This document shows, piece after piece, positions 3,534-31,252 of a stretch of 64,000 nucleotides of DNA. Positions within the stretch are counted from its first letter, which is position 1; each line of letters starts with the position of its first letter. A model generated the notes under the pieces. It was not told where the DNA came from. It saw nothing but the letters and a program-made list of their open reading frames with translations, and did not search any database. Origin of the DNA: an uncultured delta proteobacterium (GTDB lineage Bacteria > Desulfobacterota > Binatia > Binatales > Binataceae); assembly GCA_963755705.1 (NCBI GenBank), contig CAVWKW010000001.1:165884-229883 (forward strand), in the 5' to 3' direction. A program made the translations under genes and the position numbers.

Positions 3534-3627
3534 TCATCGGCCGCTCGCTGAGAGCGGCAATTTTGGTGGACTCCACCACCTTCGAGATCAACCTAGCAGA
3601 GCGATCGGTTCCCCCGCCAGCTTTGAT

Positions 3628-4084: not shown

Positions 4085-5386
<1,302 letters not shown>

Positions 5387-5460: not shown

Positions 5461-5469
5461 GTACTCGCG

Positions 5470-7398: not shown

Positions 7399-7407
7399 TC
7401 GAGCAGA

Positions 7408-7500
7408 GTTGGTGATGGGGTTCACCGCTACAACCGCCCTTTCCTGAGCTGGGCTGATGACCCCTACCGAGGTGTAAGCCGGTAGGGGTTGGCTTTCTCA
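7408..7500 (+). promoter_or_regulatory. Second fluoride riboswitch (crcB motif) with terminator-type expression platform
   Basis: GGTGATGGGGTTCACCGCTACAACCGCCCTTTCCTGAGCTGGGCTGATGACCCCTACC is a near-copy of the riboswitch-1 aptamer core. It is followed by the hairpin CCCCTACC-N12-GGTAGGGG and TTGGCTTTCTC. Confidence 0.85.
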
Positions 7501-8547: not shown

Positions 8548-8559
8548 CCAAAGACTCCA

Positions 8560-10685: not shown

Positions 10686-10688
10686 TCG

Positions 10689-12278
10689 ATGCCCCCGGGA
10701 CTCCGACAAGTACTCGAAGAGGCTACCGCGCGATGGAACAGCAACGTTCGCCCGAGCCCCGAAGACGGCGCCGAATCGGCTTATCGGTTGGAGTGCGAGC
10801 CTCGTGCACTGCCGGAGATTTGCGACTGGCTATTCTCTGAGATGAATTACAGCTTCGGCGGCCTTGTCGTCGAGCAGCTAGCGCAATGGGAGCTGCGCTA
10901 TTTATTTTACGGGGGCTCGGACGCAGGCTGGCTGCACGTTCTTACTCATCTATCCCCTTCCGAAGATCGAGTACCCAGCATCAGCAGGCTGGTGCATGCC
11001 GCCGACTGGCACGAACGCGAGGTCGAGGATCTGTTCGGGCTGTTCTTCGAGGGGCACCCTCGCCTTGGTGACTTCGTGCTTCACGACGACGTTTGGCATG
11101 AGGGCATCGCTCCGATGCGTAAAAGCTTCGTTGCAAGCGAGCCCGTACTTCATCGTGAGCCTGACCTGACGTGGAAGCCCCGCCAGATCGTCGAGGAAGC
11201 GGGCGCTTTTTCGATGCCAGTAGGGCCCATCTATTCGGCGGCCACTGGGCCGGTGCACTTTCAGCTTGAAACCGTGGGTGAGGACGTGATTCGCGCGCAG
11301 CCGCGTCTCTTCTACGCCTATCGAGGGCTGGAAAAAATCGCGGAGGGACGTCAGGCCGAAGACGTGCTGCTGATCGCGGAGCGGATCAGCGGAACTTCGG
11401 CATTCGCTCATTCACTCGCGGTTTGTCAGTCCGTCGAGCACGTCAGCCAAATCGAAGTGCCGCCGCGAGGCCGCGCGCTGAGAATATTTGCCGCCGAGCT
11501 CGAACGCCTGCGGCATCATGCGTCGGTGATCGAAGGTATCTGTGAATCCACCGCCCTTGCTGTGGCTGCTGCGCAGGCCGCGATCCTCGAAGAAGACTTG
11601 CTCCGGATTTCCGGCGCTCTTACCGGCCATCGATATCTGTTCGGCCTGAGCACCTTCGGCGGCGTGACGATAGACCTTGATGGCGCAGCCTGCCGGGGAG
11701 CGGCGGCGCAGGTGCGAGATATAGGTGAAAAGCTCTCAACTCTGGAGCGGATGCTTAGCACCTCGAGCAGCTTCCTCGACCGCCTCGAGCAGGTTGGTGA
11801 TGTCTCGGCGAACGATGCCCGCGAGTTTGGGCTGGTCGGACCTATCGCTCGCGCCTCCGGCGTTTCGCGGGATCTGAGGAAGGCGCAGCCATATTCCGGC
11901 TATGAGGCGGTTGAGTTTGAAGTTCCACGTGAAACCGAGGGGGATGGCTTCGCGCGGCTGCGCCTGTTCTTTCGGGAGGCTACGCAATCAGTGCGGATTA
12001 TTTCGAAGATCGCCGAACGGATTCCAGATGGCCGGTTTCGCGCGCCGGAAGTCTGGTTGCGGCCCGGTGCCGCGCTGGGCTGGGTTGAAGCGCCACGCGG
12101 AGCCGCTCTGCATTGGCTTCGTTTGCGCGAGGACGGCGTGGTCGATCGATACCGAATTATCACGCCGTCGTTCGCTAACTGGCACGGGTTCAGGCTTGCG
12201 GCCGAAAGATTTGCGTTCCAGGACTTTCCAATAATCCTCGCGACGTTCGCGCTCTCAGTTCACGAGAACGATCGCTAG
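10689..12278 (+). CDS. Ehr-type large subunit (NuoC-NuoD/HycE-like fusion) lacking the [NiFe]-binding cysteines
   Basis: NuoD/HycE core (FSMPVGPIYSAATGPVHFQLETVGE). At the L1 motif position the sequence is ERISGTSAFAHS, i.e. RxCGxCxxxH with both Cys replaced by Ser. The C-terminus ...ALSVHENDR has no DPCxxCxxH motif and resembles the NuoD end. Confidence 0.8.
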   Translation: MPPGLRQVLEEATARWNSNVRPSPEDGAESAYRLECEPRALPEICDWLFSEMNYSFGGLVVEQLAQWELRYLFYGGSDAGWLHVLTHLSPSEDRVPSISRLVHAADWHEREVEDLFGLFFEGHPRLGDFVLHDDVWHEGIAPMRKSFVASEPVLHREPDLTWKPRQIVEEAGAFSMPVGPIYSAATGPVHFQLETVGEDVIRAQPRLFYAYRGLEKIAEGRQAEDVLLIAERISGTSAFAHSLAVCQSVEHVSQIEVPPRGRALRIFAAELERLRHHASVIEGICESTALAVAAAQAAILEEDLLRISGALTGHRYLFGLSTFGGVTIDLDGAACRGAAAQVRDIGEKLSTLERMLSTSSSFLDRLEQVGDVSANDAREFGLVGPIARASGVSRDLRKAQPYSGYEAVEFEVPRETEGDGFARLRLFFREATQSVRIISKIAERIPDGRFRAPEVWLRPGAALGWVEAPRGAALHWLRLREDGVVDRYRIITPSFANWHGFRLAAERFAFQDFPIILATFALSVHENDR

Positions 12279-12293
12279 ACGGCGGGAACAGCC

Positions 12294-13064
12294 ATGAGCC
12301 AATGGTTGATCAAGGGTCTCAGAACCGGCATCAAGAGCACGCCCTATCCGCGCGCCACGGAAACTGCGGCTGGAACGTCCCCAGGCCTGCCCGCCGCTAC
12401 CAGACTCGCCGCGGAGCAGGCGCAATCGGTGGTGGCTCGGTGTCCTACAGGTGCGCTTGAACTCGCGCCGGCTGGTGTGGACGTGAACGTGCGCCAGTGT
12501 ATCCACTGCATGCGGTGCGCGCGTGATACGGACAGACCGATGGATTGGGAACGCGGCTACGAGTGGGCGAGCGAAGTCTCGGCGGTTGATGACCGAACCC
12601 GGCACTTCGGTCCCGCGTTTGCTCGGTCGGTTCAGATTCTCGTGGTCGATACAGGCGACTGCGGTGCGTGCCTGAATGAAGTCCGACAGCTCAACAATCC
12701 CTACTACAACCTGCATCGCCTCGGATTCTTTCTCACTCCAACTCCGCGGCATGCGGACGTGTTGCTCGTAGTCGGAGCGCTGACCGAGCACATGCGCGCG
12801 CCCCTGCTCAAGGCTTACAACGCGATGCCTGGTCCAAAGCGCATCGTTGCCGTAGGCGCGTGCGCGTTATCGGGAGGAATTTTTGGCCGGAGCTTCATGT
12901 GCGCAGGCGGAGTAAGCGAACTGCTCCCGGTCGATGTCGAGGTGCCGGGTAATCCGCCGCCGCCACTAGCTATCCTGCACGGACTATTGGTTGCGGTGGG
13001 CCGTAAAACCTCTGCCAGTTTGCATCGCGCGGTAGGTGGCTCCACGGGGAAAGCGTCGGGATGA
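12294..13064 (+). CDS. Ehr-type small subunit (NuoB/HycG-like) with degenerate N-terminal ferredoxin-like region
   Basis: DTGDCGACLNE (CxxC..E), VGACALSGG (GxCxxxGG) and VPGNPPPP (where CPGCPP/VPGCPP is expected; Cys replaced by Asn). The N-terminus has a single CIHCMRC (CxxCxxC) plus CPTG remnant. Confidence 0.75.
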   Translation: MSQWLIKGLRTGIKSTPYPRATETAAGTSPGLPAATRLAAEQAQSVVARCPTGALELAPAGVDVNVRQCIHCMRCARDTDRPMDWERGYEWASEVSAVDDRTRHFGPAFARSVQILVVDTGDCGACLNEVRQLNNPYYNLHRLGFFLTPTPRHADVLLVVGALTEHMRAPLLKAYNAMPGPKRIVAVGACALSGGIFGRSFMCAGGVSELLPVDVEVPGNPPPPLAILHGLLVAVGRKTSASLHRAVGGSTGKASG

Positions 13065-15211
13065 CCGCGATGGGCTTGCTGCTGATCATCATCCTGGGGT
13101 TGTGCGTCGTCGGGATATTGTTGCCGCTGGCGGTTGATGAACGATTAACGCCGGCGATTGTGGGATGGCTCGGAGCGTGCGCGGCCGCCGTCTTACTCTG
13201 CTTCAGCGGAGCCTCTCTGTTTGCCGACGTGCCGTTTCACTCGACGTTGTGGAGCATTCCCTCGCTGGCGACGCTCACGCTCTCGCTCGATCGGCTGTCG
13301 GCGCTGTTTCTTTTTGTCTCGGGCTTGATCCTCCTTCCCGGATCGATTTTCGCCGCCGGCAATCTCCGTCGATACGCGGGCCGGTACAGTCTCGGGGCCT
13401 TTAGCGTTCCATATTTCGCGCTCTTCGCAACGCTGGTGTTGATTCCTTTATCGGCCGACGCGGTCTCCTTCCTGATGCTGTGGGAGTCGATGTCGATCCT
13501 GATCTATCTGCTGGTGAACTACGAAGACGAAGATGAGGAGCATATCCGGTCGGGATTCCTGATGCTCGCGGTGGGCGAGGCCGGCACGCTCCTCATCGCG
13601 CTCGCGTTCATCGTGCTCGCCAAAAATGGCTCGCTCGAGTTCGCCGCGATGAAGGATGGCTCAGGTACGTTGACCGAGTACACGCGATGGGCCGTTTTTC
13701 TGCTCGCGTTTTTTGGCTTCGGCGTGAAGGCCGGTCTCATCCCGGTGAACTTTTGGCTCCCGCAGGCTTATGCCGCTGCGCCGGACGCCTTCGTTCCGGT
13801 GCTGGCTGGAGCGACCTTGAACCTCGGAATTTACGGAATCGTCAGAGTCAATGGCGATCTGCTGCCGGTTGCGATGATCGGCCCCGGCATCGTCGCGCTG
13901 ATAATAGGCAGTGTTACCGCATTGCTCGGGATACTTTACGCGACAACCCAGAACGATCTTAAAACTATGCTCGCGCACAGCTCGATCGAGAACGCGGGCA
14001 TCATCACGGCGGCTCTTGGCGCGGGGTTCATCTTCGTGGCGTCGAATCGCCCATCGCTCGCAGCGATTGCGTTCGCGGCGGCCTTCTACCACACAGCGAA
14101 TCACTCGATCTATAAGGCCCTGCTGTTCTTCGCGACCGGTGCGGTTGATTCAAATACCGGGACGCGAAGCATCGACCGGCTCGGAGGCTTGATAAAGGCG
14201 ATGCCTCTCACCGCATTGTTCTTTCTGGTTGGCGCGCTGTCGATCGCGGCGCTGCCGCCGTTCAACGGATTCGTCAGCGAATGGCTCACGCTGCAGACGA
14301 TGCTGCAAAGCGCGGGGCTCGCTTCGACTGGCGTGAAAATCGTCTTTGCGCTTTGTGGCGCGATCCTCGCCCTGACCGCAGCGCTCGCGGTGACCTGCTT
14401 CGTGAAGGCGTTTGCGATGAGCTTCCTCGGAATGCCGCGCTCCGAATCTGCCGCGCAGAGTCGGCCTGCGCGAGCCTCTGCGACCCTTCCGATGGCGTTC
14501 CTCGCGGTGCTCTGCCTCGTGCTCGGAGTGACTCCGACCTATGTGATTCCGGTGCTCGACGGAGCGATAGCGCCGATCGCGGGGCAAGCTCGCGCTGCCG
14601 ACGCACTGGTGCCGCCATTCTTCGCCGGCAACGTTCATCACGGCGAGTTGCCCGCATCCTTCGTCGCGGACTTTCACGCGATCGGCGCGCAAGTTGGACA
14701 GAGTATCTTGCCGGGACGCGGGCTGGTCGTGATGCATCGCGGCGGCAAAGCCAATCCGATCGTGTTCGCAATGTCCACTTCGTACATGGCGGTGGTCTTA
14801 GCGTTGATGCTGCTGATGACTTACGTTGTTTTTCGAGTAGTGATTGCTCGAAGCCGCGCCATCGAGCGGCGCGCGGTCTGGGATGGAGGTATCCGGAGGT
14901 TGCTCCCGGAAATGACCTACACTGGTACGGGATTCTCGAATCCGGTGCGAGTTATCTTTGAGGCGATCTTCAGGCCTACCACCGTGGAGGACACCAGAGA
15001 GACGGTAGGAAAGCATTTCCGGGCGGCGATTCGCCGCACGCGCGGAGAAAATCACGTACTCGACCGTCTGATTCTCAATCCGATCGCGGATGCCGCCTTG
15101 TGGGTATCAAAAGGTTTCGCGCGGATGCATCACGGCATTCTCAACGCGTACGTTCTCTACGGGCTCGGCGCGCTAATCCTGGCGCTTTTGATCGCGAGAT
15201 TTTCCTCATGA
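13061..15211 (+). CDS. Ehr/Hyf-type antiporter-like subunit, NuoL/HyfB-like (EhrA-like)
   Basis: 716 aa, many TM. NuoL/MrpA-like motifs (GVKAGLIPVNFWLPQAYAAAPDAFVPVLAGATL). Start overlaps the small-subunit stop. Confidence 0.8.
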   Translation: MTAMGLLLIIILGLCVVGILLPLAVDERLTPAIVGWLGACAAAVLLCFSGASLFADVPFHSTLWSIPSLATLTLSLDRLSALFLFVSGLILLPGSIFAAGNLRRYAGRYSLGAFSVPYFALFATLVLIPLSADAVSFLMLWESMSILIYLLVNYEDEDEEHIRSGFLMLAVGEAGTLLIALAFIVLAKNGSLEFAAMKDGSGTLTEYTRWAVFLLAFFGFGVKAGLIPVNFWLPQAYAAAPDAFVPVLAGATLNLGIYGIVRVNGDLLPVAMIGPGIVALIIGSVTALLGILYATTQNDLKTMLAHSSIENAGIITAALGAGFIFVASNRPSLAAIAFAAAFYHTANHSIYKALLFFATGAVDSNTGTRSIDRLGGLIKAMPLTALFFLVGALSIAALPPFNGFVSEWLTLQTMLQSAGLASTGVKIVFALCGAILALTAALAVTCFVKAFAMSFLGMPRSESAAQSRPARASATLPMAFLAVLCLVLGVTPTYVIPVLDGAIAPIAGQARAADALVPPFFAGNVHHGELPASFVADFHAIGAQVGQSILPGRGLVVMHRGGKANPIVFAMSTSYMAVVLALMLLMTYVVFRVVIARSRAIERRAVWDGGIRRLLPEMTYTGTGFSNPVRVIFEAIFRPTTVEDTRETVGKHFRAAIRRTRGENHVLDRLILNPIADAALWVSKGFARMHHGILNAYVLYGLGALILALLIARFSS

Positions 15212-15384
15212 AGCTTGACCGGCGTTAAACGGAGTCTTAATTTTGAACTGTAGGCGGTGGAGTCCGCCGATATCTGCCATCCGGCCAATGACTCCTGCAA
15301 GCGGGTAGAGACCCGTGGCAGGAGTTTCCACTCCAGAAGCTGGGTCTCGAGACCGCTCCGACGATTGCTGATCGGAGGCCGCAA

Positions 15385-16212
15385 GTGCTCGAGCGCCTGA
15401 CAAAAAATTTCCGGGAACTACTCAAGAAGTTCGAGGGCGCGTCGTGCCCGCTGTGTTCTGTACTAAAATGGCGGGAACAACAGCGGCTTGAGCGGCTGCG
15501 CGCAAGCGGCGTTTCGACGCGTGTCCTGTGCGGCCCGCATCTCGAAATGGCTCTGGCCGCGCTTGCTATCCGGACGGCAAGGGCGCGACTGACTCGTAGC
15601 GCGATCGAATCCGTCCTCGCCGGCCGTCCCGATTGCGAAGTGTGCTCATGGCTGTGCCAAATCGAGCTTCGGCTAGTGCGAGCGATTCGTCGTTTGGACG
15701 GCGGGATGCGCTTCCAGAAGGCTCTCGAATCGGCGCCGCTGTTCTGCCGCAAGCATGCGAGGGCGATCGGTGAACAAAATGCAGCGGTTAATTTTGCACA
15801 CGTCCAGAAGGCGAGGCTGCTTCGCTTGCGTAACGCGCTGGCTCAAGCAGAGTTGCGCAACAGCGCGGAGTTGGAATCGCTGATATCCAAGACGCTTGCG
15901 TACTTGGCTGCCCCAGTCGAGCAAGAGCCGGCATCAGAAGTCCTCGATTCCTCCGATAGCACGGAGAGTGACGCCGCGGAATTCGGGCGATGGGAGGATG
16001 CGCGTCAGCTCAAACATCTATCTGACCTCGAGAGCGAAGCGGCAAGCCTGCGCTATCGCAACGCAACGCTCGCCGAGGAAAACCGCAGACTCAAGCTCGC
16101 GCATGCTGCGGGCGAGGCTTTGAGGCGCGACCTCGAACACGATCGAGAGCAGTTTATTGCCGCGGCAAAAGCACAGGATCCAAATTCCGTAAAATCTTCA
16201 AACCGGAATTGA
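15385..16212 (+). CDS. Hypothetical protein with two C2CH zinc-ribbon-like modules and a C-terminal coiled-coil/acidic tail (GTG start)
   Basis: GGAGG RBS 6 nt before GTG at 15385. Modules CPLC-x24-LCGPH and CEVC-x33-FCRKH. C-terminal heptad-like ESEAASLRYRNATLAEENRRLKLAHAAGEALRRDLE. Confidence 0.55.
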   Translation: MLERLTKNFRELLKKFEGASCPLCSVLKWREQQRLERLRASGVSTRVLCGPHLEMALAALAIRTARARLTRSAIESVLAGRPDCEVCSWLCQIELRLVRAIRRLDGGMRFQKALESAPLFCRKHARAIGEQNAAVNFAHVQKARLLRLRNALAQAELRNSAELESLISKTLAYLAAPVEQEPASEVLDSSDSTESDAAEFGRWEDARQLKHLSDLESEAASLRYRNATLAEENRRLKLAHAAGEALRRDLEHDREQFIAAAKAQDPNSVKSSNRN

Positions 16213-16926
16213 ATGGAGCGAATCATCCCCATGCGAATCTGCATCATCTCTGACCTGCATGCGAACCTCGAGGCTCTTGCAGCGTTGCCGAGCGACTATG
16301 ACGAGTTATGGGTATTGGGCGACCTGGTCGATTATGGTCCCGATCCGGCTGAAACGATCGAATTCGTCCGATCTCACGCGTTGACCGTGATTCGAGGCAA
16401 CCATGACAACGCGGTCGGATTCGGAACGGACTGCGGATGCTCTCCCCGATTCACCGCGATGGCGGAGGCAACACGCAAGTACACTACCTCAGTCTTGAGT
16501 GCGAGCGACAAGCAGTTTCTCCGCGACCTCCCGACGTGCGCGTGCCGCCAACTAGACGGTCGAGTATTTTTTCTCTGCCACGCGACCCCGTCGGATCTTT
16601 TGTACGAATACCGTCCGCCAGACTCTCCTCTGTGGGCCCGAGATGAGGAGTCCAGTTCAGGAGCGGACGTTCTGCTGGCGGGCCATACGCACCTGCCGTT
16701 CGTACGCGTCTTCGGCGAGCGCGTCGTAGCTAATCCGGGAAGTCTCGGACAATCGAAAGTTGGAGGTGCGCGTGCCCGCTATGCGGTCTGGCAGGATGAC
16801 CATATCGAGCTAAAGGACTACGAATATCCCGTCAATAAAACTATACACAAAATTCTGACACTGCCATTGCCCGAGGAAGTAAAGCACGATCTCGTCTGTG
16901 TGCTTCGCACGGGGACGGCGCCGTGA
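16213..16926 (+). CDS. Calcineurin-like metallophosphoesterase (YfcE/MJ0936/Vps29-fold family)
   Basis: Motifs ISDLHAN, VLGDLVDYGPDP, RGNHDN and GHTH, in canonical order. Confidence 0.8.
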   Translation: MERIIPMRICIISDLHANLEALAALPSDYDELWVLGDLVDYGPDPAETIEFVRSHALTVIRGNHDNAVGFGTDCGCSPRFTAMAEATRKYTTSVLSASDKQFLRDLPTCACRQLDGRVFFLCHATPSDLLYEYRPPDSPLWARDEESSSGADVLLAGHTHLPFVRVFGERVVANPGSLGQSKVGGARARYAVWQDDHIELKDYEYPVNKTIHKILTLPLPEEVKHDLVCVLRTGTAP

Positions 16927-17918
16927 GTACTAATAGTCATCGAGACGCCGCGCCGGCGCCGATTGCGATCACGGCGGACTCCGCAAAACTCACTGCTCTG
17001 GGACGTCACCTGCGATCTCTGCACGACGGGGACGGCGCGGTGATTGAGGCAATCGGCATCGGTGCTCCAGCGGTTCCGATCCTGCGGGCACTTCTGTCTG
17101 AGCGAGACTTCACGGGGATTTTCGAACCGCGGATGCGGGCCGTTCAGGCGCTGGCCGCGCTCAGAGCCACGAGCGAATTGAAAGAGTACGTTCGGGGGTG
17201 GCAATCGGCCTCAGACCCCGTCGAGCGATTCGGAGACGAGGCAGTGCTGGGGACGGCCGCCAGATTTTTGGGCGCGACTAAAGACGAAGACGCTTATCAG
17301 ATCTTGATCGCGGTGGCCCGAAAGCATCCGGTGCCTGGCGTCATCGAAGCATTGGGAAGCTGTGGCCGCAAGGAATCGATTCCGATCGTAATCAAAGCCC
17401 TTGCCGACGACGTCAGCCGTAGCGCCGCGGAACAGGCGTTAAGAATCCTCGGAGAGGTCGGCGCACCTGCACTCATCGAAGCCGCCCTGCGACCCGTAGC
17501 GAACTTTTGGGGCAGTGAAATTCCATCCAGTGTGCGGCGGCGCCGCAGCGCACTGATGCTGCTGTTCGAATTTGGCGTCACCCGCGACATTTGGGACCGC
17601 GTCCGCGGGTTGGCAGCGGATTCAGACGACGAGATCGCGGTCCACGCGTGCGCGATTGGCCTGACCGCCGGGACCTATCCCGACCAGCGCGATTGCGCGC
17701 GCCGAATGGTGGCACTGCTGCGTCAGGTGGCGTGGCCGCTTCATCGTGAAGTCGAGGACTGTCTGATAGTTCATTTCGCAATCGCGCGCGAGTTCGTCGA
17801 ACAGGCGATCAAAAGCCCGATGGACCTGATCGCGAATGACTTCGCGCGTGCCCGCTTCAAACGATCCCTGCGCCGGATCGCGGCGCGAGCATCAACCAGC
17901 CAGGCGCCCAGGAGTTGA
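16923..17918 (+). CDS. HEAT/PBS-lyase-type alpha-solenoid repeat protein
   Basis: Repeated ~30-aa units (AVxALGxIGxPAVPxLxxLLxD...) typical of HEAT-like repeats. Start overlaps the upstream stop. Confidence 0.7.
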   Translation: MSTNSHRDAAPAPIAITADSAKLTALGRHLRSLHDGDGAVIEAIGIGAPAVPILRALLSERDFTGIFEPRMRAVQALAALRATSELKEYVRGWQSASDPVERFGDEAVLGTAARFLGATKDEDAYQILIAVARKHPVPGVIEALGSCGRKESIPIVIKALADDVSRSAAEQALRILGEVGAPALIEAALRPVANFWGSEIPSSVRRRRSALMLLFEFGVTRDIWDRVRGLAADSDDEIAVHACAIGLTAGTYPDQRDCARRMVALLRQVAWPLHREVEDCLIVHFAIAREFVEQAIKSPMDLIANDFARARFKRSLRRIAARASTSQAPRS

Positions 17919-20380
17919 CCTCGATGCCGCAAGCAGCGTCGCAGATCTCGGATATCGCGAGCGATGCTGTCCGCCGCTATGACGATCTCAAGCTTGAGAT
18001 CGCGGCGATCGGACAGACCGCGATGCTCACCTGCACCAAAGATAAAGATGAGGAAGGTGAGCGAGCGTTCCAGTCGGTGCTGGCGCGGCTCGCTGAAGAT
18101 CACTTCAATCTCGCCGTTATCGGTCCCTTCAGTCGCGGTAAGAGCAGCCTGATGAACGCGATCCTCGGTTTTCAGGGCCTGCCCACCGGCCTCCTGCCGC
18201 ACACCTCCGTCATCACGACCGTCAGTTACGCGCCACACGAACGCGTTCTCGTTCGGTGCGCGGGATGGCCGCTTCCGCAGGAGGTTCGACTCGATCAACT
18301 CGCTGAGTATGTAACCGAACGGGGAAATCCCGGCAATCGGCGGGGCGTGGCGCTCGCGGAGATCCAGTTGCCGGCCGAGATCCTTCGCCACGGCCTCTAC
18401 TTTATCGATACTCCGGGCGTTGGTTCCGCGATCGTCGCCAACACAAAAACCACGGAACGGTTCCTTCCCGAGATCGATGCCGCGGTCTTCGTCTCCAGTT
18501 TCGATTTCGCCGTAAGCGAGGCGGATATCGAGTTCTTGCGTACCGTTACCGCGACGGTGGGCAAGGTATTTTTCGTCCTGAACAAACTCGACCTCACGTC
18601 GAAGTCCGAGGCCGAAGAAGTCATCAGATTCGTCCGCGACCGGCTCGACCGCGAACCGGGTATTGGGCGCTACTCTTTGTTCGCTGTGTCGGCCAAGCGC
18701 GCGCTCGAAGCAAAACTACATGGAGATTCGGGTGCGCTAGCCCAGTCCGGGCTGATTGAACTGGAGGATGCGCTGGCGGCATTCACGGCCTCGGACAAGA
18801 CGCACCAATTGTCCGTGCGCGTAATGGACCGCCTGGTCGCTCTGCTGCAACGCGAACGCGCACACGCCGGTTTTGCTGTAGCTTCAAAGCGATCTTCTTC
18901 GCAGGTCTCCGAAGCACTCGTCGGGTTCGATGAAAAGGCCGCCGTCCTCAAAGTGCGATGCGCGGCACTCGTAAACCGCCTTGGAGCGCTGGGCAATGAT
19001 GCGCTGCGCGCCTCTCAACGGCGCCTCGACTTCGCGTTCACCAGCCTCAAGCAAAGCGCGACTTTGAAATTCGCGCCGAACTTTCTTACCGGCAGGATAT
19101 TTTCCAGGCCGAATACGCTCGATACTTTCACGCGCAACGTGTCCGTGTTTTGTGCCGGCGCGCTCACGCGCGATTTACAAGTTTACGAGGCCGCACTGAA
19201 CGAGCATTTGGACCGGACAGCCGGTCCGGTCCGCACCGAACTTCTCGCTCTACCCTATGAAGTCTTCGACATCGCGATGAATGATGAGGGCAACACTCGC
19301 GAGCTTTCAAAGCTCTCTGCGGAAGAGCCCGAGGCAGCGCCGCCTTCTGTGGGGCTCGGGGGGATCGCGCGCATCGAGTGGAGACCGCGATTGCCGTGGT
19401 GGATATACGTGGCTCCCCGGCGCTGGTTTCCCGCGGCGATGAAGAGACAGTTTGCCGTCGCGCTCGGCGACCTGCTCGCCCAATACCGGTCCCGTGTCGA
19501 TGCGATGATCCGCGTCGTCCTGAAGGAATATGCAGAGAAACTGAATCGCGAAACTGAGAAGGCAATCGACGTTCAAGTGGCTCGCGTGAAAAAACTTCTC
19601 GCATCGGGAGGAATCGAAAAAAGTCGTCAGGTGTTCGAGACGCTTCTGGAACGAGCTAGAGAGCTAAGACGACGACTTGGTGACAACCCTGACCGTGGAT
19701 CACTGCCTGAGAATAGCGCCGCGGCTTCCGTCAGGGTGCGAGCGTGTCCTGTCTGCCGCACAGTTCTGCGCGCAGTCTTCGACTACTTAAGCAAGCTGCA
19801 ATATGAGTTGAGCATCGACGCTGACGCTCAACACCGACACGCGAAGAACGGCGGCTTTTGTTCGATGCACACGTGGATTTACGCCAGCATGACCTCGCCG
19901 GTTGCGATCGCGCGGGCCTATCCCGCGCTGCTAGACGCGCTTGCGGCTCGTCTGGAACGTGCTGCGGGAGAGGCGGTATCGATCGCGGAGCTGGCTCACG
20001 ACATTGACGATCTGGCGCCGTCGAAAGAGACTTGCGGAGCGTGCGCAATCGCCCGTGACGGAACGGAGCAGTCGGTCGCGGAGGTCCTTCGGCGCCTCGA
20101 TTCAGACGGGCGCAGCGAGGTTCCGGCCTTATGCCTGCCGCATTTGGCGATCGCACTTCACCTCGGATCGGAATTGAACGGCGCCCGTTTGCTGACCTCA
20201 CGATGCGCGAGCGCGCTGCTACGGGCTGCCGAAGACATGCGCCATCACGCGCTGAAGCACGACGCGATCCGGCGCGGCCTTATGTCGGGGGATGAGCGCG
20301 ATGCGCATCACACCGGCCTCAGAAAATTAACCGGCGACATGCTGCTGACACTCCCGCCTCGAGGGGACGACCGCCTCTAA
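17915..20380 (+). CDS. Dynamin-like GTPase (bacterial DLP family) with C-terminal double C2CH zinc modules
   Basis: G1 GPFSRGKSS, G3 DTPG and G4 NKLD in dynamin order, followed by a long helical region. The C-terminus carries CPVC-x35-FCSMH and CGAC-x28-LCLPH. Confidence 0.8.
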   Translation: MTSMPQAASQISDIASDAVRRYDDLKLEIAAIGQTAMLTCTKDKDEEGERAFQSVLARLAEDHFNLAVIGPFSRGKSSLMNAILGFQGLPTGLLPHTSVITTVSYAPHERVLVRCAGWPLPQEVRLDQLAEYVTERGNPGNRRGVALAEIQLPAEILRHGLYFIDTPGVGSAIVANTKTTERFLPEIDAAVFVSSFDFAVSEADIEFLRTVTATVGKVFFVLNKLDLTSKSEAEEVIRFVRDRLDREPGIGRYSLFAVSAKRALEAKLHGDSGALAQSGLIELEDALAAFTASDKTHQLSVRVMDRLVALLQRERAHAGFAVASKRSSSQVSEALVGFDEKAAVLKVRCAALVNRLGALGNDALRASQRRLDFAFTSLKQSATLKFAPNFLTGRIFSRPNTLDTFTRNVSVFCAGALTRDLQVYEAALNEHLDRTAGPVRTELLALPYEVFDIAMNDEGNTRELSKLSAEEPEAAPPSVGLGGIARIEWRPRLPWWIYVAPRRWFPAAMKRQFAVALGDLLAQYRSRVDAMIRVVLKEYAEKLNRETEKAIDVQVARVKKLLASGGIEKSRQVFETLLERARELRRRLGDNPDRGSLPENSAAASVRVRACPVCRTVLRAVFDYLSKLQYELSIDADAQHRHAKNGGFCSMHTWIYASMTSPVAIARAYPALLDALAARLERAAGEAVSIAELAHDIDDLAPSKETCGACAIARDGTEQSVAEVLRRLDSDGRSEVPALCLPHLAIALHLGSELNGARLLTSRCASALLRAAEDMRHHALKHDAIRRGLMSGDERDAHHTGLRKLTGDMLLTLPPRGDDRL

Positions 20381-20426
20381 GCGTCTGCAAGCCGCCTATG
20401 CAAATGCGGAACGAGATTACTCGCGA

Positions 20427-21635
20427 ATGGATCGACAATCAGAGCCTGTAATTCGCGGAGTTGAGGACCTCGATTCCGGCACGCGGTTGTTCAACCGGAA
20501 CATCGCGGGCATGTGTTTGGCAAGTCTACTCTCCGATCTCGGGCATGAAATGGCGACCTCGATCCTGCCGCTGTTCCTGATCGCGATTGGAGCATCGCCC
20601 TCGGCGCTAGGAATTATTGAGGGCGCATCCGACGGAGCCGCGACGTTCGCCAAACTGCTTGGCGGCAGGATCGCGGACCACAAGGGTTTGCGCCAAAAGG
20701 TCGCAAGCCTCGGATATTTGGTGACGGGTCTTGCAACCGGATCGTTTGCTGCAGCGACGACCTGGATCGAGTTGCTGATTGCACGGACAGTCGGATGGTT
20801 CGGCAGAGGAACGCGGGGACCATCACGCGACAATCTGCTGGTCGATTCAGTGCCACGCGCGAGGATCGGCGCGGCCCTTGGGATCCATCGGACCGCCGAT
20901 ACTCTGGGAGCGATCCTGGGTCCGCTGGCCGCGATGTTCCTGCTCCATCGAATCGGGTTCCGTAACATCTTTCTGCTGAGCCTCGTGCCGGGTGTGCTTG
21001 CGGCTGCGGCTTTTTACTTCTTTGTCCGCGAACCCAATGGCGAGGCCGTGGCGCAAGGGCAGACGATTCAGGGTTGGGATGTGGCCCTGCCATCCCGCTT
21101 CCGAATGTTTCTCGCCACAATTTTGCTGTTTGGAGTCGGAGATTTCGCCCACAGCATGCTGGTGCTCAGGGCCGCACAACTGCTCGGATCAACACCCAAG
21201 GCGATGAGCATCGCCGTTGGTCTGTACGTCATCCACAACACGGCGCACGCCGCGTTGTCTTATCCAATCGGAGTCATAGGCGACCGGATCGAGCGCCGGC
21301 GCCTTCTTGCTGCCGCCTACGTGATCGCTGCGATCGCCGCGGCCGGTTTCGCCATCGGACCACACAGCGTGGGCGCATTGGCGGTGCTCTTTATTCTCGA
21401 GGGCGCGGTGATGGCGGCGCAGGAGACGCTCGATTCAGCCGTCGCGACCGATATGTTGCCAGCCGACTCGCGCGGGGCGGGATTTGGCGTATTGAATGCG
21501 ACGAGCGGAGTCGGCGACTTCGTGTCGAGCATCGTGGTCGGATTTCTTTGGACCGGCTTCTCTGGCCACATAGCCTTCGCGTATAGCGCAATCTTAAGCG
21601 CACTGGCGGCGGTAATGATGACTTGGGCGATCTGA
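20427..21635 (+). CDS. MFS transporter
   Basis: 402 aa, 12 predicted TM. G-R-(I)-xD-(R/H)-xG-R-(R/K)-type loop (GGRIADHKGLRQK). Confidence 0.8.
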   Translation: MDRQSEPVIRGVEDLDSGTRLFNRNIAGMCLASLLSDLGHEMATSILPLFLIAIGASPSALGIIEGASDGAATFAKLLGGRIADHKGLRQKVASLGYLVTGLATGSFAAATTWIELLIARTVGWFGRGTRGPSRDNLLVDSVPRARIGAALGIHRTADTLGAILGPLAAMFLLHRIGFRNIFLLSLVPGVLAAAAFYFFVREPNGEAVAQGQTIQGWDVALPSRFRMFLATILLFGVGDFAHSMLVLRAAQLLGSTPKAMSIAVGLYVIHNTAHAALSYPIGVIGDRIERRRLLAAAYVIAAIAAAGFAIGPHSVGALAVLFILEGAVMAAQETLDSAVATDMLPADSRGAGFGVLNATSGVGDFVSSIVVGFLWTGFSGHIAFAYSAILSALAAVMMTWAI

Positions 21636-22150
21636 GAGAAATAGCTGGGCCTGGTGACGAGGATGATGGATTCCTTTTGCGGAGCAGCCGCGCAAACCAG
21701 CACGGCAAAAAGCGATCGTCTGGGTCGCTGTCCATGAACTATTCGCACACGTTAAGACTTTCGATCGTGATGCGCGCGGTTGAGGACGCGGTAATCGAGA
21801 TCGAGCGCGCGCTTGAACCCGCATCGAAAGCTCCCCAGCGCGTGATGACCGATTATCAGAACGATCTCCCCGAATCCGCAAGGTTTGAGATGCGCAGGAA
21901 GCTTGAGGAGATTCGTAAAGCAATCCAGGATGCGAAAGATTGCTATGACTTGAACGTCGAAACCGTCTCTAATCGCCGGCGTCTCTCGACCAAATTGTCG
22001 ATTCTCGCGATCGATGTGACTGAATGCAGACCTGAGTATATGCGCGGCTACGGTGAGGTGGCGCACGAAGAGCACGAGCCGCTTGACCAGCGGATGTTAC
22101 AGTTAGAGGCTCTATTAAGCGACCTGAACAAACTTGCAAGCCAAGTCTAA
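21623..22150 (+). CDS. Hypothetical protein (true start probably internal, near 21734)
   Basis: ORF only. No recognisable motif. Confidence 0.3.
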   Translation: MGDLREIAGPGDEDDGFLLRSSRANQHGKKRSSGSLSMNYSHTLRLSIVMRAVEDAVIEIERALEPASKAPQRVMTDYQNDLPESARFEMRRKLEEIRKAIQDAKDCYDLNVETVSNRRRLSTKLSILAIDVTECRPEYMRGYGEVAHEEHEPLDQRMLQLEALLSDLNKLASQV

Positions 22151-22894: not shown

Positions 22895-23489
22895 ATGTGC
22901 GAGGAGACGATTACCTCCTTTCTGCGCCAGCACTTCGGGTTTGAGCGCATCCCGGTTCCGACCGAAGCGGTCACGATGTTGATCGAGCGTGACGCCGCCG
23001 ACCTCGATTTGGCGACGAATCTGTCCGATGATATTCACGAGGTGTTTGGTTCACCCAGTTTCGAGCGCGGCGAAAAGCCGCGTGGTCAAAATCGCGCGGG
23101 AGCTGTGGGAGCAACGGCATCGTAACAATCGCTTGCGCACGACGCTGACCCACGAATATGGCCACGTGATGCTGCACACGTGGCTGTACGACAAGTACGG
23201 CGCTGCCCGCGGTCCCGACCGCTGTTACTGGCAGAGCCTGCTTCCGACCGAGCGGGTGGTGGACTGGTTTGAGTGGCAGGCGGGTTACGCCTCGGGTGCC
23301 TTGCTGATGCCGGAGAGCTTCGCGCGGCGCACGGTCGAGGCGTATTTCCAGAATCGCTCTGAGCGTCCGCCGGTCGCCAAGGGCTCGCCGGAAGCGTCAG
23401 CACTCTGCCAGCGTATATCCCTCGCGTTCGATGTCTCCGTCGAAGCCGCCACCGTGCGGCTCAAGCAACTCGGCTATCTGACCGAGTAG
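22895..23489 (+). pseudogene. ImmA/IrrE-family HExxH metallopeptidase gene with an apparent frameshift around 23050-23075
   Basis: Frame A (22895..) reads naturally to ...NLSDDIHEVFGSPSFERGE. Frame B continues ...KSRVVKIARELWEQRHRNNRLRTTLTHEYGHVMLH (HExxH) to 23489. The two ORFs overlap in different frames. Confidence 0.55.
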
Positions 23490-23764
23490 CTCCAACAACA
23501 AGCTCCCGACCATTTCGCGCCGACCGATCTTCGCGCTTGACACTCGCCCGATATCTCGCTACATAGCGAGTTAGTCACGTAGCCAAACATCGGCAGATTG
23601 CCCATGATCCAAGCCGCAATAGAGCAAGCGCCGAAATCGAACGTCAGATGGCTCATCGCCGCCTGCGCCGCCGCCCTGTTCACGCTTCGAGCCGAGCCGT
23701 CGCTGGGCCGCACCGATACGCAGGTGCCCTGCCGTGGGATCAGACGCTTGGCGCGATTCAAGAC

Positions 23765-23935
23765 ATGCTGGTCGGTCCCGTGGCTCACGCCGTAATAGTG
23801 CTGAACTTCGCCTTGTCGGCAATCCTATACGCGATCGGCAGCTACCCACGAGCAGGGCGCCTGCTGGCTGGCGGAGTAGCGGCTTGGGCCGCCCTGATCG
23901 CCGTCCAATTGCTGACTTACCTCGCGCCCTTCTGA
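23765..23935 (+). CDS. Small two-TM membrane protein (hypothetical)
   Basis: MLVGPVAHAVIVLNFALSAILYAIGSYPRAGRLLAGGVAAWAALIAVQLLTYLAPF. Lies inside the mobile-element region. Confidence 0.3.
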   Translation: MLVGPVAHAVIVLNFALSAILYAIGSYPRAGRLLAGGVAAWAALIAVQLLTYLAPF

Positions 23936-23972
23936 GCAGTCCTTTCCAAGCAACCATTGGTGGAGGTCCGAT

Positions 23973-24245
23973 ATGAAACTCGCACGCATCGCAAAGCCGC
24001 TTCGTTCCATACAGGTACGCGTGACGCTGGCCGGCGACCTGAATGCCGCCCTCGAAAGTTACGCGCGCTACTACGAGCACGTTCACGGCGACGCTGTGGA
24101 TTCGAAGGCGCTGATTCCGGAGATTCTCAGTGCCTTCCTCCAAGCTGACCGTGAGTTCCAGATTTGGTCACATTCCAGCGGTGGCAGTCATCATCGCCGC
24201 CCCAGTTCGTCTTCGTCCAACGGCAGCGCCAAGGGCCAATCGTGA
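23973..24245 (+). CDS. DUF2274-like protein (ICE/conjugative-element associated)
   Basis: MKLARIAKPLRSIQVRVTLAGDLNAALESYARYYEHVHGDAVDSKALIPEILSAFLQADREF resembles DUF2274 proteins found at the end of ICE transfer operons. From memory. Confidence 0.45.
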   Translation: MKLARIAKPLRSIQVRVTLAGDLNAALESYARYYEHVHGDAVDSKALIPEILSAFLQADREFQIWSHSSGGSHHRRPSSSSSNGSAKGQS

Positions 24246-24269
24246 CTGCCATCAGCGGAAAGTCGGCTG

Positions 24270-24440
24270 ACGTGCTTCGCACGTGTTTGGGATTGACACG
24301 TCACTCATCGCCTGGATGAACGCGATTCGTGCAAGTGCCCGTAAACATTGAGCAGACGCTGTCTACAGGAACACGTGCGAAGCCGTCTAAACCCCCGCCA
24401 AATCAGCGTAAACACCCGTCTACAGGCGGCTTTGGAGAAA
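24270..24440. promoter_or_regulatory. Candidate oriT/regulatory region: 12-bp inverted repeat GCTTCGCACGTG / CACGTGCGAAGC plus direct repeats (CGTAAACA x2, GTCTACAGG x2)
   Basis: Read from the sequence upstream of the RHH gene and the coupling-protein/relaxase genes. Confidence 0.3.
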
Positions 24441-24445
24441 CAGCC

Positions 24446-24790
24446 ATGAGCACCCGATCGATCTCAACCCGAGTCCCGGAAGAAATTGCCGATCAGCTCG
24501 CGGCCGAAGCGCGCCGCCGAAGCGTCACCGAGAGCGACCTCATTCGCGAGATTCTCGCCGCGCGCTATCTCGGCGCCGCTCTGTCAGCGATGGAACCTCG
24601 GCCAAAAATCCAATCGTTGGATGAGTACGCGCAGCTCATCTTCGAGATCGCCAAGACTCGCTCCGTGATCCTGCATTCGCTGGACCACACGCTGGGAGCG
24701 GAGGTGGTCAACGAGATCATCGACGCCGCCGAGCAGACCGCCAAGGAGCACGTCGCACAGGTGCTCAAGAGCAAGGAGACTTCGTCATGA
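24446..24790 (+). CDS. Ribbon-helix-helix (CopG/MobC-like) protein, possible relaxosome accessory factor
   Basis: MSTRSISTRVPEEIADQLAAEARRRSVTESDLIREIL has an RHH beta-strand-helix pattern. Directly precedes the T4CP. Confidence 0.5.
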   Translation: MSTRSISTRVPEEIADQLAAEARRRSVTESDLIREILAARYLGAALSAMEPRPKIQSLDEYAQLIFEIAKTRSVILHSLDHTLGAEVVNEIIDAAEQTAKEHVAQVLKSKETSS

Positions 24791-25060
24791 CGCCCATCAT
24801 TCGTCAGGCAATCCACGAACACGCCCTTTATGCTTCGCTGGAGTTCAGACTCAGAGAGGCGCTCCGTTACCTTCTCGTGACCGCGGCGCTTTGGGTCGAG
24901 ATGACCGTGTGCCTGGTCTGGCACTGGAGCGGGCCATTACGGCGGTCCGGCCGCGCATCGCTACTTCATCCGCTGGGTTCTGGCGTGGTTCCTGACCCAG
25001 GAGATTCCGCTGAGCTTCGCCTCGCTTCCCTATCGCGGCGGGCGCTACACCATCGCCAGC

Positions 25061-26581: not shown

Positions 26582-26584
26582 GCC

Positions 26585-31237: not shown

Positions 31238-31252
31238 TTAAATCAAGGAATT

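Follow-up and report, generated by a model that had tools for sequence, protein, structure and literature searches.

What do four adjacent, co-directional genes (g1–g4) for a double Cys/His-module protein, a metallophosphoesterase (MPE), a HEAT-repeat protein and a dynamin-like GTPase do together in a Binataceae-type genome? We addressed this question in a 64,000-nt stretch of DNA, hereafter the window, whose relevant features are listed in Table 1. The initial annotation, which considered phage defence, mobile-element cargo and a retromer-like coat, had the domain calls right but missed a fluoride riboswitch upstream of g1. The predicted control by this riboswitch and the location in a cluster of fluoride genes point to an undescribed part of the fluoride response rather than to phage defence or a mobile element.

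Table 1. Features of the operon and its surroundings (nucleotide positions in the window; residue numbers for the domains of g4)
Feature	Position	Strand	Description
Inorganic pyrophosphatase (PPase)	2889-3422	-	Pfam
Fluoride riboswitch	3521-3589	-	Rfam, 39.0 bits
Weak extra riboswitch match	3973-4040	-	R1, 27.2 bits
Enolase	4085-5371	-	Pfam
Fluoride riboswitch	5464-5533	+	Rfam, 54.1 bits
DUF190 with four CBS domains	5686-6990	+	Pfam
CrcB/Fluc	6992-7366	+	Pfam
Fluoride riboswitch	7402-7473	+	Rfam, 51.5 bits
Ehr/Hyf-like membrane complex, six genes	7594-15211	+	Complex-I/hydrogenase-type subunits (Pfam); directly 5' of the operon
Fluoride riboswitch aptamer (RF01734)	15244-15304	+	81 nt 5' of g1; Rfam
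Expression-platform hairpin, terminator-like	15290-15326	+	GACUCCUGC...GCAGGAGUU, then UCC
g1	15385-16212	+	275 aa; stand-alone DUF6062-like double CxxC...CxxH domain and conserved C-terminal coiled coil
g2	16213-16926	+	237 aa; calcineurin-like MPE, active-site motifs intact
g3	16923-17918	+	331 aa; HEAT-repeat protein
g4	17915-20380	+	821 aa as called; BDLP/IniA-class dynamin-like GTPase fused to DUF6062-like double Cys/His domain
Domains of g4 (residues)	66-290; ~300-590; 486-505; ~605-760		G domain; helical stalk; Trp/Arg-rich tip; DUF6062-like domain
MFS transporter, probable fifth operon gene	20427-21635	+	MFS_1, 145 bits (Pfam)
Small conserved ORF, probable sixth operon gene	~21734-22150	+	~138 aa

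Gene content and extent of the operon

Database homologues exist for all four proteins, so g1–g4 are real genes, and the ORFs and domains initially called are borne out. The genes are tightly packed: the g1/g2 junction reads TGAATG and the g2/g3 junction GTGA, so that the MPE and HEAT genes share 4 nt. The overlap also claimed for g3/g4 (TTGA as called) probably does not exist, since the true start of g4, judged from the sequence, is more likely the ATG at 17924, which has AGGAG 9 nt 5' of it and fits the 818-aa database entry P0001; this start would leave a 5-nt gap.

The operon had been taken to end with g4, at 20380. The MFS gene starts 46 nt further on, and it and the small ORF are found 3' of g4 in all close relatives. 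MFS orthologues (37–90% identity) adjoin dynamin or HEAT genes in Binatia, Bryobacterales, Terriglobia, Syntrophobacter and Anaerolineae loci, and homologues of the small ORF (31–89% identity) lie 3' of the operon in more than 12 related, mostly Binatia-type loci. The small ORF (21623-22150 in the mechanical ORF call) has no match in a Pfam search. The operon probably comprises six genes and the riboswitch, from 15244 to 22150.

Fluoride riboswitch and fluoride island

The aptamer upstream of g1 scores 35.1 bits with Rfam (E 5e-6), a margin of only 1 bit over the gathering score of 34, and 55.5 bits with R1, our own covariance model trained on fluoride riboswitch aptamers of this lineage, with this copy in the training set. 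In 11 orthologous aptamers that occupy this position in Binatia loci, 100% of the P1, P2 and pseudoknot cells are paired, compared with 29–54% with slid partners, and one P1 pair switches from C-G to U-A. The downstream hairpin, present in both the MFE and centroid folds, sequesters the 3' pseudoknot strand of the aptamer; 84% of its cells are paired in the 11 orthologues (38–49% when slid), with changes on both sides in three pairs. The U tract after the hairpin is weak in the window itself; a run of six U follows it in the closest relative (L006). With rising cytoplasmic fluoride, F- together with Mg2+ would stabilise the pseudoknot, its 3' strand ACUCCUGC would be barred from the hairpin, and transcription would read through to g1–g4 and the two genes 3' of them. 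On this evidence, induction of the operon by fluoride through the riboswitch is very probable.

The operon forms the final part of a ~19-kb fluoride-response island, and its riboswitch is the fourth there, Rfam finding three more within the same 15 kb. Fluoride riboswitch regulons (crcB motif, RF01734) include CrcB/Fluc and CLC-F. The operon shares their RNA class and expression-platform logic, and classic regulon members surround it in the window and in relatives; the neighbours are fluoride-resistance genes under fluoride riboswitches and not the defence genes that a phage-defence reading would lead one to expect. According to a 2024 review, typical riboswitch-controlled genes encode enolase, PPase, Na+/H+ antiporters, HAD phosphatases and formate-hydrogenlyase-type complexes; dynamin-like GTPases, HEAT proteins, metallophosphoesterases and DUF6062 are not among its riboswitch-associated classes (PMC11139923). 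No paper in the searchable literature, which excludes Baker et al. 2012 and its supplement, joins a fluoride riboswitch with these gene types. As the initial annotation had supposed, the gene combination itself is linked to nothing in the searchable literature, and a fluoride-induced dynamin system is not described there.

Distribution across bacterial lineages

Loci of dynamin relatives were fetched from 80 other species of Binatia, Acidobacteriota, Syntrophobacteraceae, Chloroflexota, Actinomycetota, Paraburkholderia and Mesorhizobium. R1 gives at least one riboswitch match in 72 of the 80 loci and 200 matches in all at E<=0.01; at >=30 bits the density is about 111 per Mb. Controls were limited to the positional profile and to the 42 kb of the window that carry no riboswitch. 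Same-strand matches are densest from -3 to 0 kb of the dynamin (13–26 per 100 kb vs 2–6 distally), and of the 59 ZZ-dynamins whose upstream sequence is long enough, 46 have such a match within 3.5 kb. Rfam's own model confirmed 40 riboswitches (23 + 16 + 1) in the 12–13 loci checked, which include cultured Paraburkholderia sp. J63, P. caffeinitolerans, Mesorhizobium composti and a Lichenicola plasmid. On this plasmid CrcB adjoins the dynamin, and the sole riboswitch points to CrcB, not to the dynamin.

Recurrent partners include the HEAT protein, with homologues no more than 1.5 kb from the dynamin in 34/80 loci, as well as the phosphoesterase, additional dynamin paralogues, enolase and CrcB; PPase, DUF190 and Na+/H+ antiporters also recur, and some operons have the order RS-dynamin-CrcB-DUF6062-DUF190. 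MPE-HEAT-dynamin is found, whole or in subsets, across several phyla, linked there to fluoride riboswitches and regulon genes. The quartet or parts of it co-occur outside this genome, in many soil bacteria, and the initial view of a compact, conserved gene set with a shared function is supported.

Concerning the Ehr genes, g1–g4 might be an accessory, assembly or quality-control module of the upstream complex, with fluoride control merely inherited from the Ehr operon. They lie directly 3' of Ehr genes in all Binatia loci, and in two loci (L001 and L009) the Ehr riboswitch and complex lead straight into MPE-HEAT-dynamin without a second riboswitch, so a single transcript may span them all. Ehr-type genes are present somewhere in 25/80 loci, but 55/80 have none within 10 kb, and the dynamins of Terriglobia, Bryobacterales and Proteobacteria come with riboswitches of their own, their neighbours being enolase, CrcB or DUF190 instead. 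Even in 10 of 11 Binatia-type loci, Ehr and g1 are separated by a dedicated riboswitch, and we consider the accessory role improbable.

The proposal that the operon is cargo of an integrative element beside tRNA-Sec has in its favour genes for a T4CP, a TrwC relaxase and an integrase 4.7–10.9 kb downstream; in addition, the module in locus L004 has an integrase and a primase at its flanks. Collinearity with the closest relatives (~90% and ~81% DNA identity) extends from the Ehr genes as far as ~22.1 kb (22134 for L006), short of the conjugation genes. In none of the 85 other loci is there a counterpart of the T4CP or the integrase, and the relaxase has a single weak match there, in L060, about 10 kb away from the dynamin. 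The conjugation genes accompany the operon in no relative, which argues against the cargo claim.

Conserved domains of the encoded proteins

Among 25 homologues, the two CxxC...CxxH modules of g1 are fully or almost fully conserved. The initial annotation recognised them and overlooked the same double module at the C-terminus of g4, where all eight residues (C611/C614/C649/H652 and C707/C710/C740/H743) are invariant in 30 homologues and would bind metal at two Cys3His sites. Both DUF6062-like domains of the window are under the Pfam threshold (13.6 and 17.7 bits vs 27), whereas short-form and stand-alone relatives pass it with 29–83 bits; all align to the same region of the PF19538 profile. 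For this uncharacterised family, the searchable literature holds no function, structure or paper. g1 is a free copy of the domain with a coiled coil that would dimerise.

Concerning g4, Dynamin_N is matched with 79.1 bits and the GTPase motifs (G70-S78, DTPG 165-168, NKLD 223-226) are invariant in 30 homologues. The best profile matches in the PDB are BDLP (2j68, 1.4e-30) and IniA (8e-22), and the AF2 model (pLDDT 78) has BDLP (2j69) and IniA (6j72) as top Foldseek matches. BDLP of Nostoc punctiforme, IniA/IniC of Mycobacterium and DynA of Bacillus subtilis act in the fusion, fission and repair of membranes under envelope stress. g4 shares with BDLP and IniA the complete G domain and a helical neck/trunk, its predicted stress induction recalls the iniBAC operon, and the grouping of two or three dynamin paralogues in many loci recalls known dynamin pairs. 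The Trp/Arg-rich tip, whose motif is conserved and which lies in a loop that the model predicts with low confidence, may bind membranes. Unlike all solved dynamin-like proteins, g4 carries the additional C-terminal domain with its two putative metal sites; it also differs from BDLP, IniA and DynA in its predicted induction via a fluoride riboswitch, in its fixed partners (HEAT, MPE and MFS transporter) and in the existence of stalk-less family members. These short forms (~585 aa, about half of the family) join the G domain straight to DUF6062, without dynamin stalk and paddle, so the conserved core need not act on membranes.

LeoABC/Eleos ('Dynamins') anti-phage systems also contain a dynamin-family GTPase, and PADLOC gives weak matches to LeoA (44.6 bits), LeoBC (19.7 bits) and, for the Cys/His domain, PDC-S70 (18.7 bits). 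The LeoA match is limited to residues 22-85 and to sub-family level, there is one dynamin gene only and no LeoBC partner, and LeoA ranks 38th in the fold search, after BDLP, IniA and mitofusins; in structure the modelled g4 is nearer to BDLP and IniA than to LeoA. Given also the riboswitch control and fluoride-regulon surroundings in ~70 species, a defence system, whether or not element-borne, is very unlikely.

g2 matches Metallophos_2 (77.3 bits), and among solved chains 3rqz is the nearest (E 1.3e-22). Like YfcE/MJ0936-type and ApaH/PrpE-type enzymes it has this fold and the full metal-ligand set: DxH (13-18), GD (36), GNHD (62), H (123) and GHTH (157). It scores 52.9 bits against TIGR00040 (YfcE), under the 56.25 cut-off, and differs from both types in its translational coupling to a HEAT gene and its predicted fluoride regulation. 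g3 matches HEAT_2 (37.1 bits).

Metallophos_2 also holds YfcE, MJ0936 and Vps29, and the initial annotation likened the MPE fold, alpha-solenoid and dynamin to eukaryotic retromer-type machinery (Vps29 and Vps35); on this reading they would form a prokaryotic precursor of a membrane coat. The overlapping MPE and HEAT genes indeed stay together apart from the dynamin, as in locus L002. However, g2 retains all catalytic motifs, unlike Vps29, g3 is a short PBS-lyase-type HEAT protein in which a search detected no similarity to Vps35, and no arrestin-like (Vps26-type) domain was found among the proteins scanned. The analogy is weakened to the point where we give it hardly any credence.

Proposed function of the probably fluoride-induced dynamin system

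We propose, with about even confidence, that g1–g4 are the core of a six-gene fluoride-switched operon whose products preserve membrane and bioenergetic integrity. They would form a membrane-associated machine built on the BDLP/IniA-type GTPase, with its stalk tip and putatively metal-binding C-terminal domain, together with the free copy of that domain (g1), a HEAT scaffold (g3), an MPE predicted from its motifs to be catalytically competent (g2) and the MFS transporter. This machine would work alongside fluoride export by CrcB and ion pumping by the Ehr-type complex under fluoride and weak-acid stress, in parallel to IniA and DynA under envelope stress. Membrane maintenance as the specific role of the dynamin is more tentative.

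A rather unlikely alternative is that the G domain and DUF6062 form a GTP-driven factor reactivating or re-metallating fluoride-poisoned Mg/Mn phosphoryl-transfer enzymes (enolase, pyrophosphatase and the co-encoded phosphoesterase), with HEAT as adaptor and no membrane remodelling. Enolase and PPase are inhibited by fluoride through metal-fluoride complexes (PMC11139923). In 10/41 short-form loci enolase is no more than 300 nt away, in 16/80 loci overall no more than 1.5 kb, and Terriglobia have the order RS-MPE-enolase-G-ZZ; the direct joining of the two domains in the short forms and the eight invariant Cys/His residues also fit. To our knowledge, no dynamin-family GTPase is a metallochaperone or reactivase. 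Against this alternative also stand the full BDLP-like stalk of g4, the stalk-bearing paralogues beside short forms in 17/41 loci, and other operons that pair dynamins with the membrane channel CrcB and with MFS transporters.

Extent of the operon and its place in a fluoride-response island

The four co-directional ORFs described in the initial annotation (g1, a protein with two CxxC...CxxH modules; g2, a metallophosphoesterase; g3, a HEAT-repeat protein; g4, a dynamin-like GTPase) are confirmed at the positions shown in the table, with the junction sequences TGAATG (g1/g2), GTGA (g2/g3) and TTGA (g3/g4). As all four have many database homologues, they are regarded as real genes. Pfam agrees with the earlier domain calls for g2 (Metallophos_2, 77.3 bits vs a threshold of 27; calcineurin-like phosphoesterase), g3 (HEAT_2, 37.1 bits) and g4 (Dynamin_N, 79.1 bits vs a threshold of 27; dynamin-family GTPase). 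The GTG start of g1 is preceded by GGAGG. For g4 the start is probably the ATG at 17924, which has AGGAG 9 nt upstream; a database entry of identical sequence (P0001) has 818 aa. The operon had been taken to end at 20380, but it continues with an MFS gene and a small ORF. The MFS gene is a true orthologue across loci and not a generic MFS gene (37–90% identity), being found in Binatia, Bryobacterales, Terriglobia, Syntrophobacter and Anaerolineae loci, and the small ORF follows it in most Binatia-type loci. A promoter and terminator consensus scan of 15.1–21.8 kb was uninformative, the sites being no commoner than in shuffled sequence.

The fluoride riboswitches of the locus had been missed. 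In a search of the whole window with Rfam, four fluoride riboswitches (RF01734) reach the gathering score, all of them within the first 15.3 kb; the other 48.7 kb has none. Because of these riboswitches and the enolase, pyrophosphatase, CrcB, DUF190 and Ehr genes, we regard 2.9–22.1 kb as a fluoride-response island, of which the g1–g4 operon is the last transcription unit. The enolase gene is located between the first two riboswitches. The segment 2889–15304 is dense, with the four Rfam riboswitches within 12 kb, and the Ehr-like complex is under a fluoride riboswitch of its own. An additional aptamer-like match, found with our covariance model between the enolase and the pyrophosphatase riboswitch, scores below the Rfam threshold; it may represent a fluoride aptamer that is degenerate or part of a tandem.

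Features of the fluoride-response island, the operon and the adjoining element (window positions)
Feature	Position	Strand	Following genes or remarks
IS1-like transposase ORF	1155–2099		left edge of the fluoride island
Fluoride riboswitch	3521–3589	-	inorganic pyrophosphatase
Aptamer-like match	3973–4040	-	27.2 bits (our covariance model)
Fluoride riboswitch	5464–5533	+	DUF190 with four CBS domains, then CrcB
CrcB	6992–7366		
Fluoride riboswitch	7402–7473	+	six-gene Ehr/Hyf-like complex
Fluoride riboswitch	15244–15304	+	g1, 81 nt downstream
Hairpin	15290–15326		
g1, double Cys/His protein	15385–16212		
g2, phosphoesterase	16213–16926		
g3, HEAT-repeat protein	16923–17918		
g4, dynamin-like GTPase	17915–20380		
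Small ORF	~21734–22150		after the MFS gene
Remnant integrative, mobilisable element	22989–31348		absent from the closest relatives

The aptamer upstream of g1 is marginal by score (35.1 bits vs a gathering score of 34, E 5.4e-6 over the whole window). It is supported by its kept position, its kept pairing and a kept competing hairpin: an aptamer is present at the matching position in ten other Binatia-type loci, and the orthologous copies in relatives score 43–61 bits with our covariance model. In the 11 orthologous copies all 132 of 132 cells of P1, P2 and the pseudoknot pair, compared with 29–54% for slid partners. One P1 pair changes from C-G to U-A among these copies, and the pseudoknot, in which GGAGU of the P1 loop pairs with ACUCC of the 3' tail, is invariant. 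The 5' arm of the hairpin is the 3' pseudoknot strand of the aptamer in both the MFE and the centroid folds, and the hairpin is itself conserved (84% of cells paired, with three compensatory pairs, in the 11 copies). It is followed by a U run which is short and weak in the window (UUUCC) and long in L006, the closest relative. As predicted from sequence, aptamer and competing hairpin have the usual layout of a fluoride ON switch, and they precede six tightly packed genes.

Fluoride riboswitches beside the dynamin in other species

More than 600 relatives of the dynamin are found in a metagenome protein collection. The nearest relative of the window (89% protein identity) is a Binatia-type MAG, which places the window in that lineage. 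A scan of one genome per species gave 329 dynamin relatives, of which 80 loci were kept. These include Binataceae, Bryobacterales, Terriglobia, Syntrophobacteraceae, Solirubrobacteraceae, Humibacter, Anaerolineae, Limnocylindrales, Verrucomicrobiae, Sporomusaceae, Paraburkholderia, Mesorhizobium and others; the loci were chosen via the dynamin itself, and most of the genomes are MAGs. A covariance model built from 11 Rfam-validated aptamers was run on the 1.32 Mb of these loci and gave 200 matches at E≤0.01 and 147 at 30 bits or more (about 111 per Mb); the model is lineage-biased and under-calls in Proteobacteria. At least one match is present in 72 of the 80 loci. The other eight are mostly short contigs, and in one of them (L082) Rfam then detected a riboswitch.

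The association is one of position as well as presence and spans phyla. For 59 of the Cys/His dynamins the sequence extends 3.5 kb or more upstream, and 46 of these have a same-strand riboswitch within 3.5 kb. The density of same-strand riboswitches is 13–26 per 100 kb within 3 kb upstream of the dynamin and 2–6 in distal bins, and in this profile none falls within the dynamin gene body. With Rfam's own model, six loci yielded 23 riboswitches; another six, of which only L062 had none, yielded 16, and a plasmid locus yielded one more. In the cultured Paraburkholderia sp. J63, Rfam places a riboswitch directly upstream of the dynamin. Ten riboswitches at the Rfam threshold are found within 21.6 kb in the cultured Mesorhizobium composti CC-YTH430 (L073, NZ_SSNY01000003.1, 27764–49383). 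This array is exceptionally dense and surrounds a pyrophosphatase gene, a short dynamin–DUF6062 gene, a HEAT gene and Ehr-type genes.

The plasmid collection gave a single match, on the Lichenicola cladoniae plasmid NZ_CP053712.1 (L086). Here the genes annotated as 'dynamin family protein' and 'fluoride efflux transporter CrcB' stand back-to-back, and the riboswitch faces CrcB and not the dynamin. The annotated crcB (L086 7545–8774) encodes 409 aa, about three times the usual length, and the protein may be fused or extended. It is under a 59.7-bit fluoride riboswitch, and a universal stress protein is next.

Partner genes

The arrangements found in relatives, for three single loci and then as the typical layouts of three lineages, are presented in the second table. 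By labels from crude ORF calling and iterated HMMs, a HEAT protein lies within 1.5 kb of the dynamin in 34 of the 80 loci, a phosphoesterase within 5 kb in 32, a second or third dynamin paralogue within 5 kb in 34 and an enolase within 1.5 kb in 16. CrcB is present in 17 loci, DUF190 in 21 and Ehr-type genes in 25. These counts bear on one alternative, that the operon serves only the adjacent Ehr complex: since most loci lack Ehr, such a confined role is improbable.

Gene order in relatives (RS, fluoride riboswitch; MPE, metallophosphoesterase; lengths in aa)
Locus or lineage	Arrangement
L001 (Binatia MAG)	RS, Ehr, MPE, HEAT, dynamin
L002	RS, DUF6062, dynamin, HEAT, MFS; divergent: RS, MPE, HEAT
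L004	RS, dynamin, HEAT, dynamin; beside CrcB, DUF190, Usp, Na+/H+ exchanger, MPE, RS-controlled enolase
Binatia	[Ehr]-RS-g1-MPE-HEAT-dynamin(820)-MFS-small ORF
Bryobacterales	RS-dynamin(~700)-[MFS]-HEAT-dynamin(~810), or RS-HEAT-MPE-dynamin(~790)
Terriglobia, first	RS-[DUF190]-MPE-enolase-dynamin(~585)
Terriglobia, second	RS-dynamin(~720)-CrcB-DUF6062(201)-DUF190-DUF190-dynamin(~635)

The second Terriglobia arrangement is conserved, with a DUF6062 protein of ~200 aa, in six Acidiferrales and Terriglobia loci (L046, L050, L054, L064, L068 and L069). This operon joins dynamins, a stand-alone DUF6062 protein and a fluoride channel in one transcription unit.

Domain organisation of the dynamin and the Cys/His proteins

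The P-loop GxxxxGKS (70–78), DTPG (165–168) and NKLD (223–226) of g4 are invariant in 30 homologues. Against PDB, the profile of these homologues matches Nostoc BDLP (2j68, 1.4e-30, positions 64–466) and also the Campylobacter DLP pair, IniA (8e-22) and mitofusins. The AF2 model of g4 (pLDDT 78.3) has BDLP 2j69 (E 1.5e-16, 687 columns) and IniA 6j72 as its top Foldseek matches, LeoA ranking only 38th. In the model the G domain is followed by a predicted helical neck/trunk bundle, as in the BDLP/IniA/mitofusin class. The membrane paddle of BDLP is located at the loop that joins the two long stalk helices; the corresponding loop of g4 (486–505) carries a conserved Trp/Arg/Pro-rich motif, RIEWRPRLPWWIYVAPRRWF, and we infer that it may be the membrane-binding tip, a cautious assignment because model confidence is low there.

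An extra helical domain (~605–760) with eight invariant residues and two CxxC...CxxH sets (C611, C614, C649, H652 and C707, C710, C740, H743) is found near the C-terminus of g4. The g1 protein gives nothing above threshold in Pfam and NCBIfam, but hhalign aligns it with the g4 C-terminus (probability 88.7%, E 2.6e-6). It shares the invariant residues of the domain, has a strongly conserved C-terminal coiled coil, and is a free copy of the extra domain of g4. Both score below the gathering threshold of 27 for DUF6062 (PF19538; g1 13.6 bits, g4 C-terminus 17.7). A short relative (P0069) with 38% identity to g4 592–814 itself scores 30.5 bits, and the stand-alone relatives P0175 and P0176 score 80–83 bits. 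These comparisons indicate that the Cys/His domains of the window are homologous to DUF6062 through intermediate sequences.

A word-indexed search with the C-terminal domain of g4 gave only five proteins, and the family was sized by an exhaustive search of representatives: 889 cluster representatives (clusters at 50% identity) contain a DUF6062-type domain, which is at or near the C-terminus in every match listed. Three size classes are present: ~800–885, ~530–620 and ~200–330 aa. In the ~585-aa class the stalk is missing and the protein consists of the G domain and DUF6062; to our knowledge this direct fusion has not been described for dynamin-family GTPases. Stalk-less proteins (P0069 and the ~585-aa genes of L039–L052) make up about half of the family and are often encoded directly after enolase. 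This position favours the main rival to a membrane role, in which the core of G domain and DUF6062 would rescue fluoride-poisoned metal-dependent enzymes, a reading that we consider rather unlikely overall.

The metal-ligand set of g2 is complete (DxH / GD / GNH(D/E) / H / GHxH, aligned with 3rqz). Its nearest counterparts are the structural-genomics protein 3rqz and enzymes that resemble Ap4A hydrolase; assignment to the YfcE subfamily (TIGR00040) was rejected, the score of 52.9 bits being below the NCBIfam cut-off of 56.25. The completeness of this site also bears on the likeness to retromer proposed earlier. In retromer (Vps29–Vps35–Vps26) the active site of the phosphoesterase-fold subunit is degenerate, and this subunit is joined by a large solenoid of the Vps35 type and a subunit with an arrestin fold, whereas g2 has intact catalytic motifs, g3 is only 331 aa long with PBS-lyase-type repeats alone, and a Vps26-type domain was not detected: Pfam scans of g1–g4, the MFS protein and the small ORF gave no arrestin-like domain. 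A retromer-like coat was therefore discarded.

Possible function

Fluoride riboswitches switch on genes which mitigate fluoride toxicity, and the classes known to be controlled by them are exporters, Na+/H+ antiporters, pyrophosphatase, enolase, HAD phosphatases and hydrogenlyase-type complexes (2024 review, PMC11139923); dynamins and DUF6062 are not among the classes in that review. The literature searched contains no paper in which dynamins or DUF6062 are tied to the fluoride riboswitch or to crcB, although the supplement to the 2012 survey may list a case. Two types of system that are each known, the fluoride regulon unit and the dynamin systems of bacteria, come together at this locus. In seven or more phyla of bacteria, members of a putative clade of dynamin-like GTPases are found under fluoride riboswitches, and HEAT, phosphoesterase and MFS proteins are their fixed partners.

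Fluoride very probably induces the six-gene operon, and its products would act together. The BDLP-type dynamin would work at the membrane, as IniA and DynA do under envelope stress; beyond envelope-stress repair, the roles of bacterial dynamins are poorly understood. That the dynamin maintains membrane and bioenergetic integrity amid HF influx, F- export and proton pumping is a proposal to which we would give a little less than an even chance. The forms of fluoride resistance known so far are exporters, the homeostasis of pH and ions, and additional copies of the enzymes that fluoride inhibits. More tentatively, dynamin, DUF6062, HEAT protein and phosphoesterase may make up a machine, powered by GTP and dedicated to the response to fluoride damage, that is widespread among bacteria of acid soils. 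It would add a third kind of resistance to export and the over-production of enzymes, and would act by remodelling or repair of the membrane or by rescue of metalloenzymes poisoned by fluoride. The G domain might also be a direct target of fluoride in the form of a metal–fluoride transition-state analogue (MgF3-/AlF4-), in which case the ion would be both transcriptional inducer and allosteric effector of dynamin assembly.

The association is widespread and unexpected for both the fluoride and the dynamin fields. For bacterial dynamins it would provide an inducer that is defined and can be titrated, together with a selectable phenotype for tests, and for DUF6062 a first functional context; it also hints at a missing piece of fluoride toxicity, either membrane damage or the poisoning of GTPases and metalloenzymes. 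As cultured carriers exist (Paraburkholderia sp. J63, P. caffeinitolerans LMG 28688, M. composti CC-YTH430 and L. cladoniae PAMC 26569), these proposals are directly testable, and they are relevant to engineering fluoride tolerance for organofluorine biodegradation.

Defence systems and the neighbouring mobile element

A phage-defence function had been suggested for g1–g4 and was rejected because the PADLOC matches are only weak and partial: LeoA gives 44.6 bits, with the best stretch limited to g4 residues 22–85, LeoBC 19.7 bits, and PDC-S70 18.7 bits on the Cys/His domain. LeoABC/Eleos was likewise dismissed, as the operon has one dynamin gene and the LeoA match does not extend over the model length.

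The operon was also suspected to be cargo of the adjacent mobile element. The coupling protein (T4CP), TrwC relaxase and integrase at 25–31 kb are real, but they are not co-inherited with the operon: among the 85 other loci no T4CP or integrase homologue was found, and the relaxase has one weak match, ~10 kb from the dynamin in L060. DNA collinearity with the two closest relatives (L006 and L007) covers the Ehr genes and what follows them up to ~22.1 kb, where it ends. A tRNA scan of six relatives found no tRNA-Sec near the operon, so tRNA-Sec and the element neighbourhood are specific to this genome. The element encodes an IrrE/M78-like peptidase, an RHH protein, a TrwB-type coupling protein, a TrwC relaxase-helicase and a tyrosine integrase. 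The integrase gene ends 16 nt before the 5' end of tRNA-Sec; it is unusual for an integrase to lie 5' of its tRNA.
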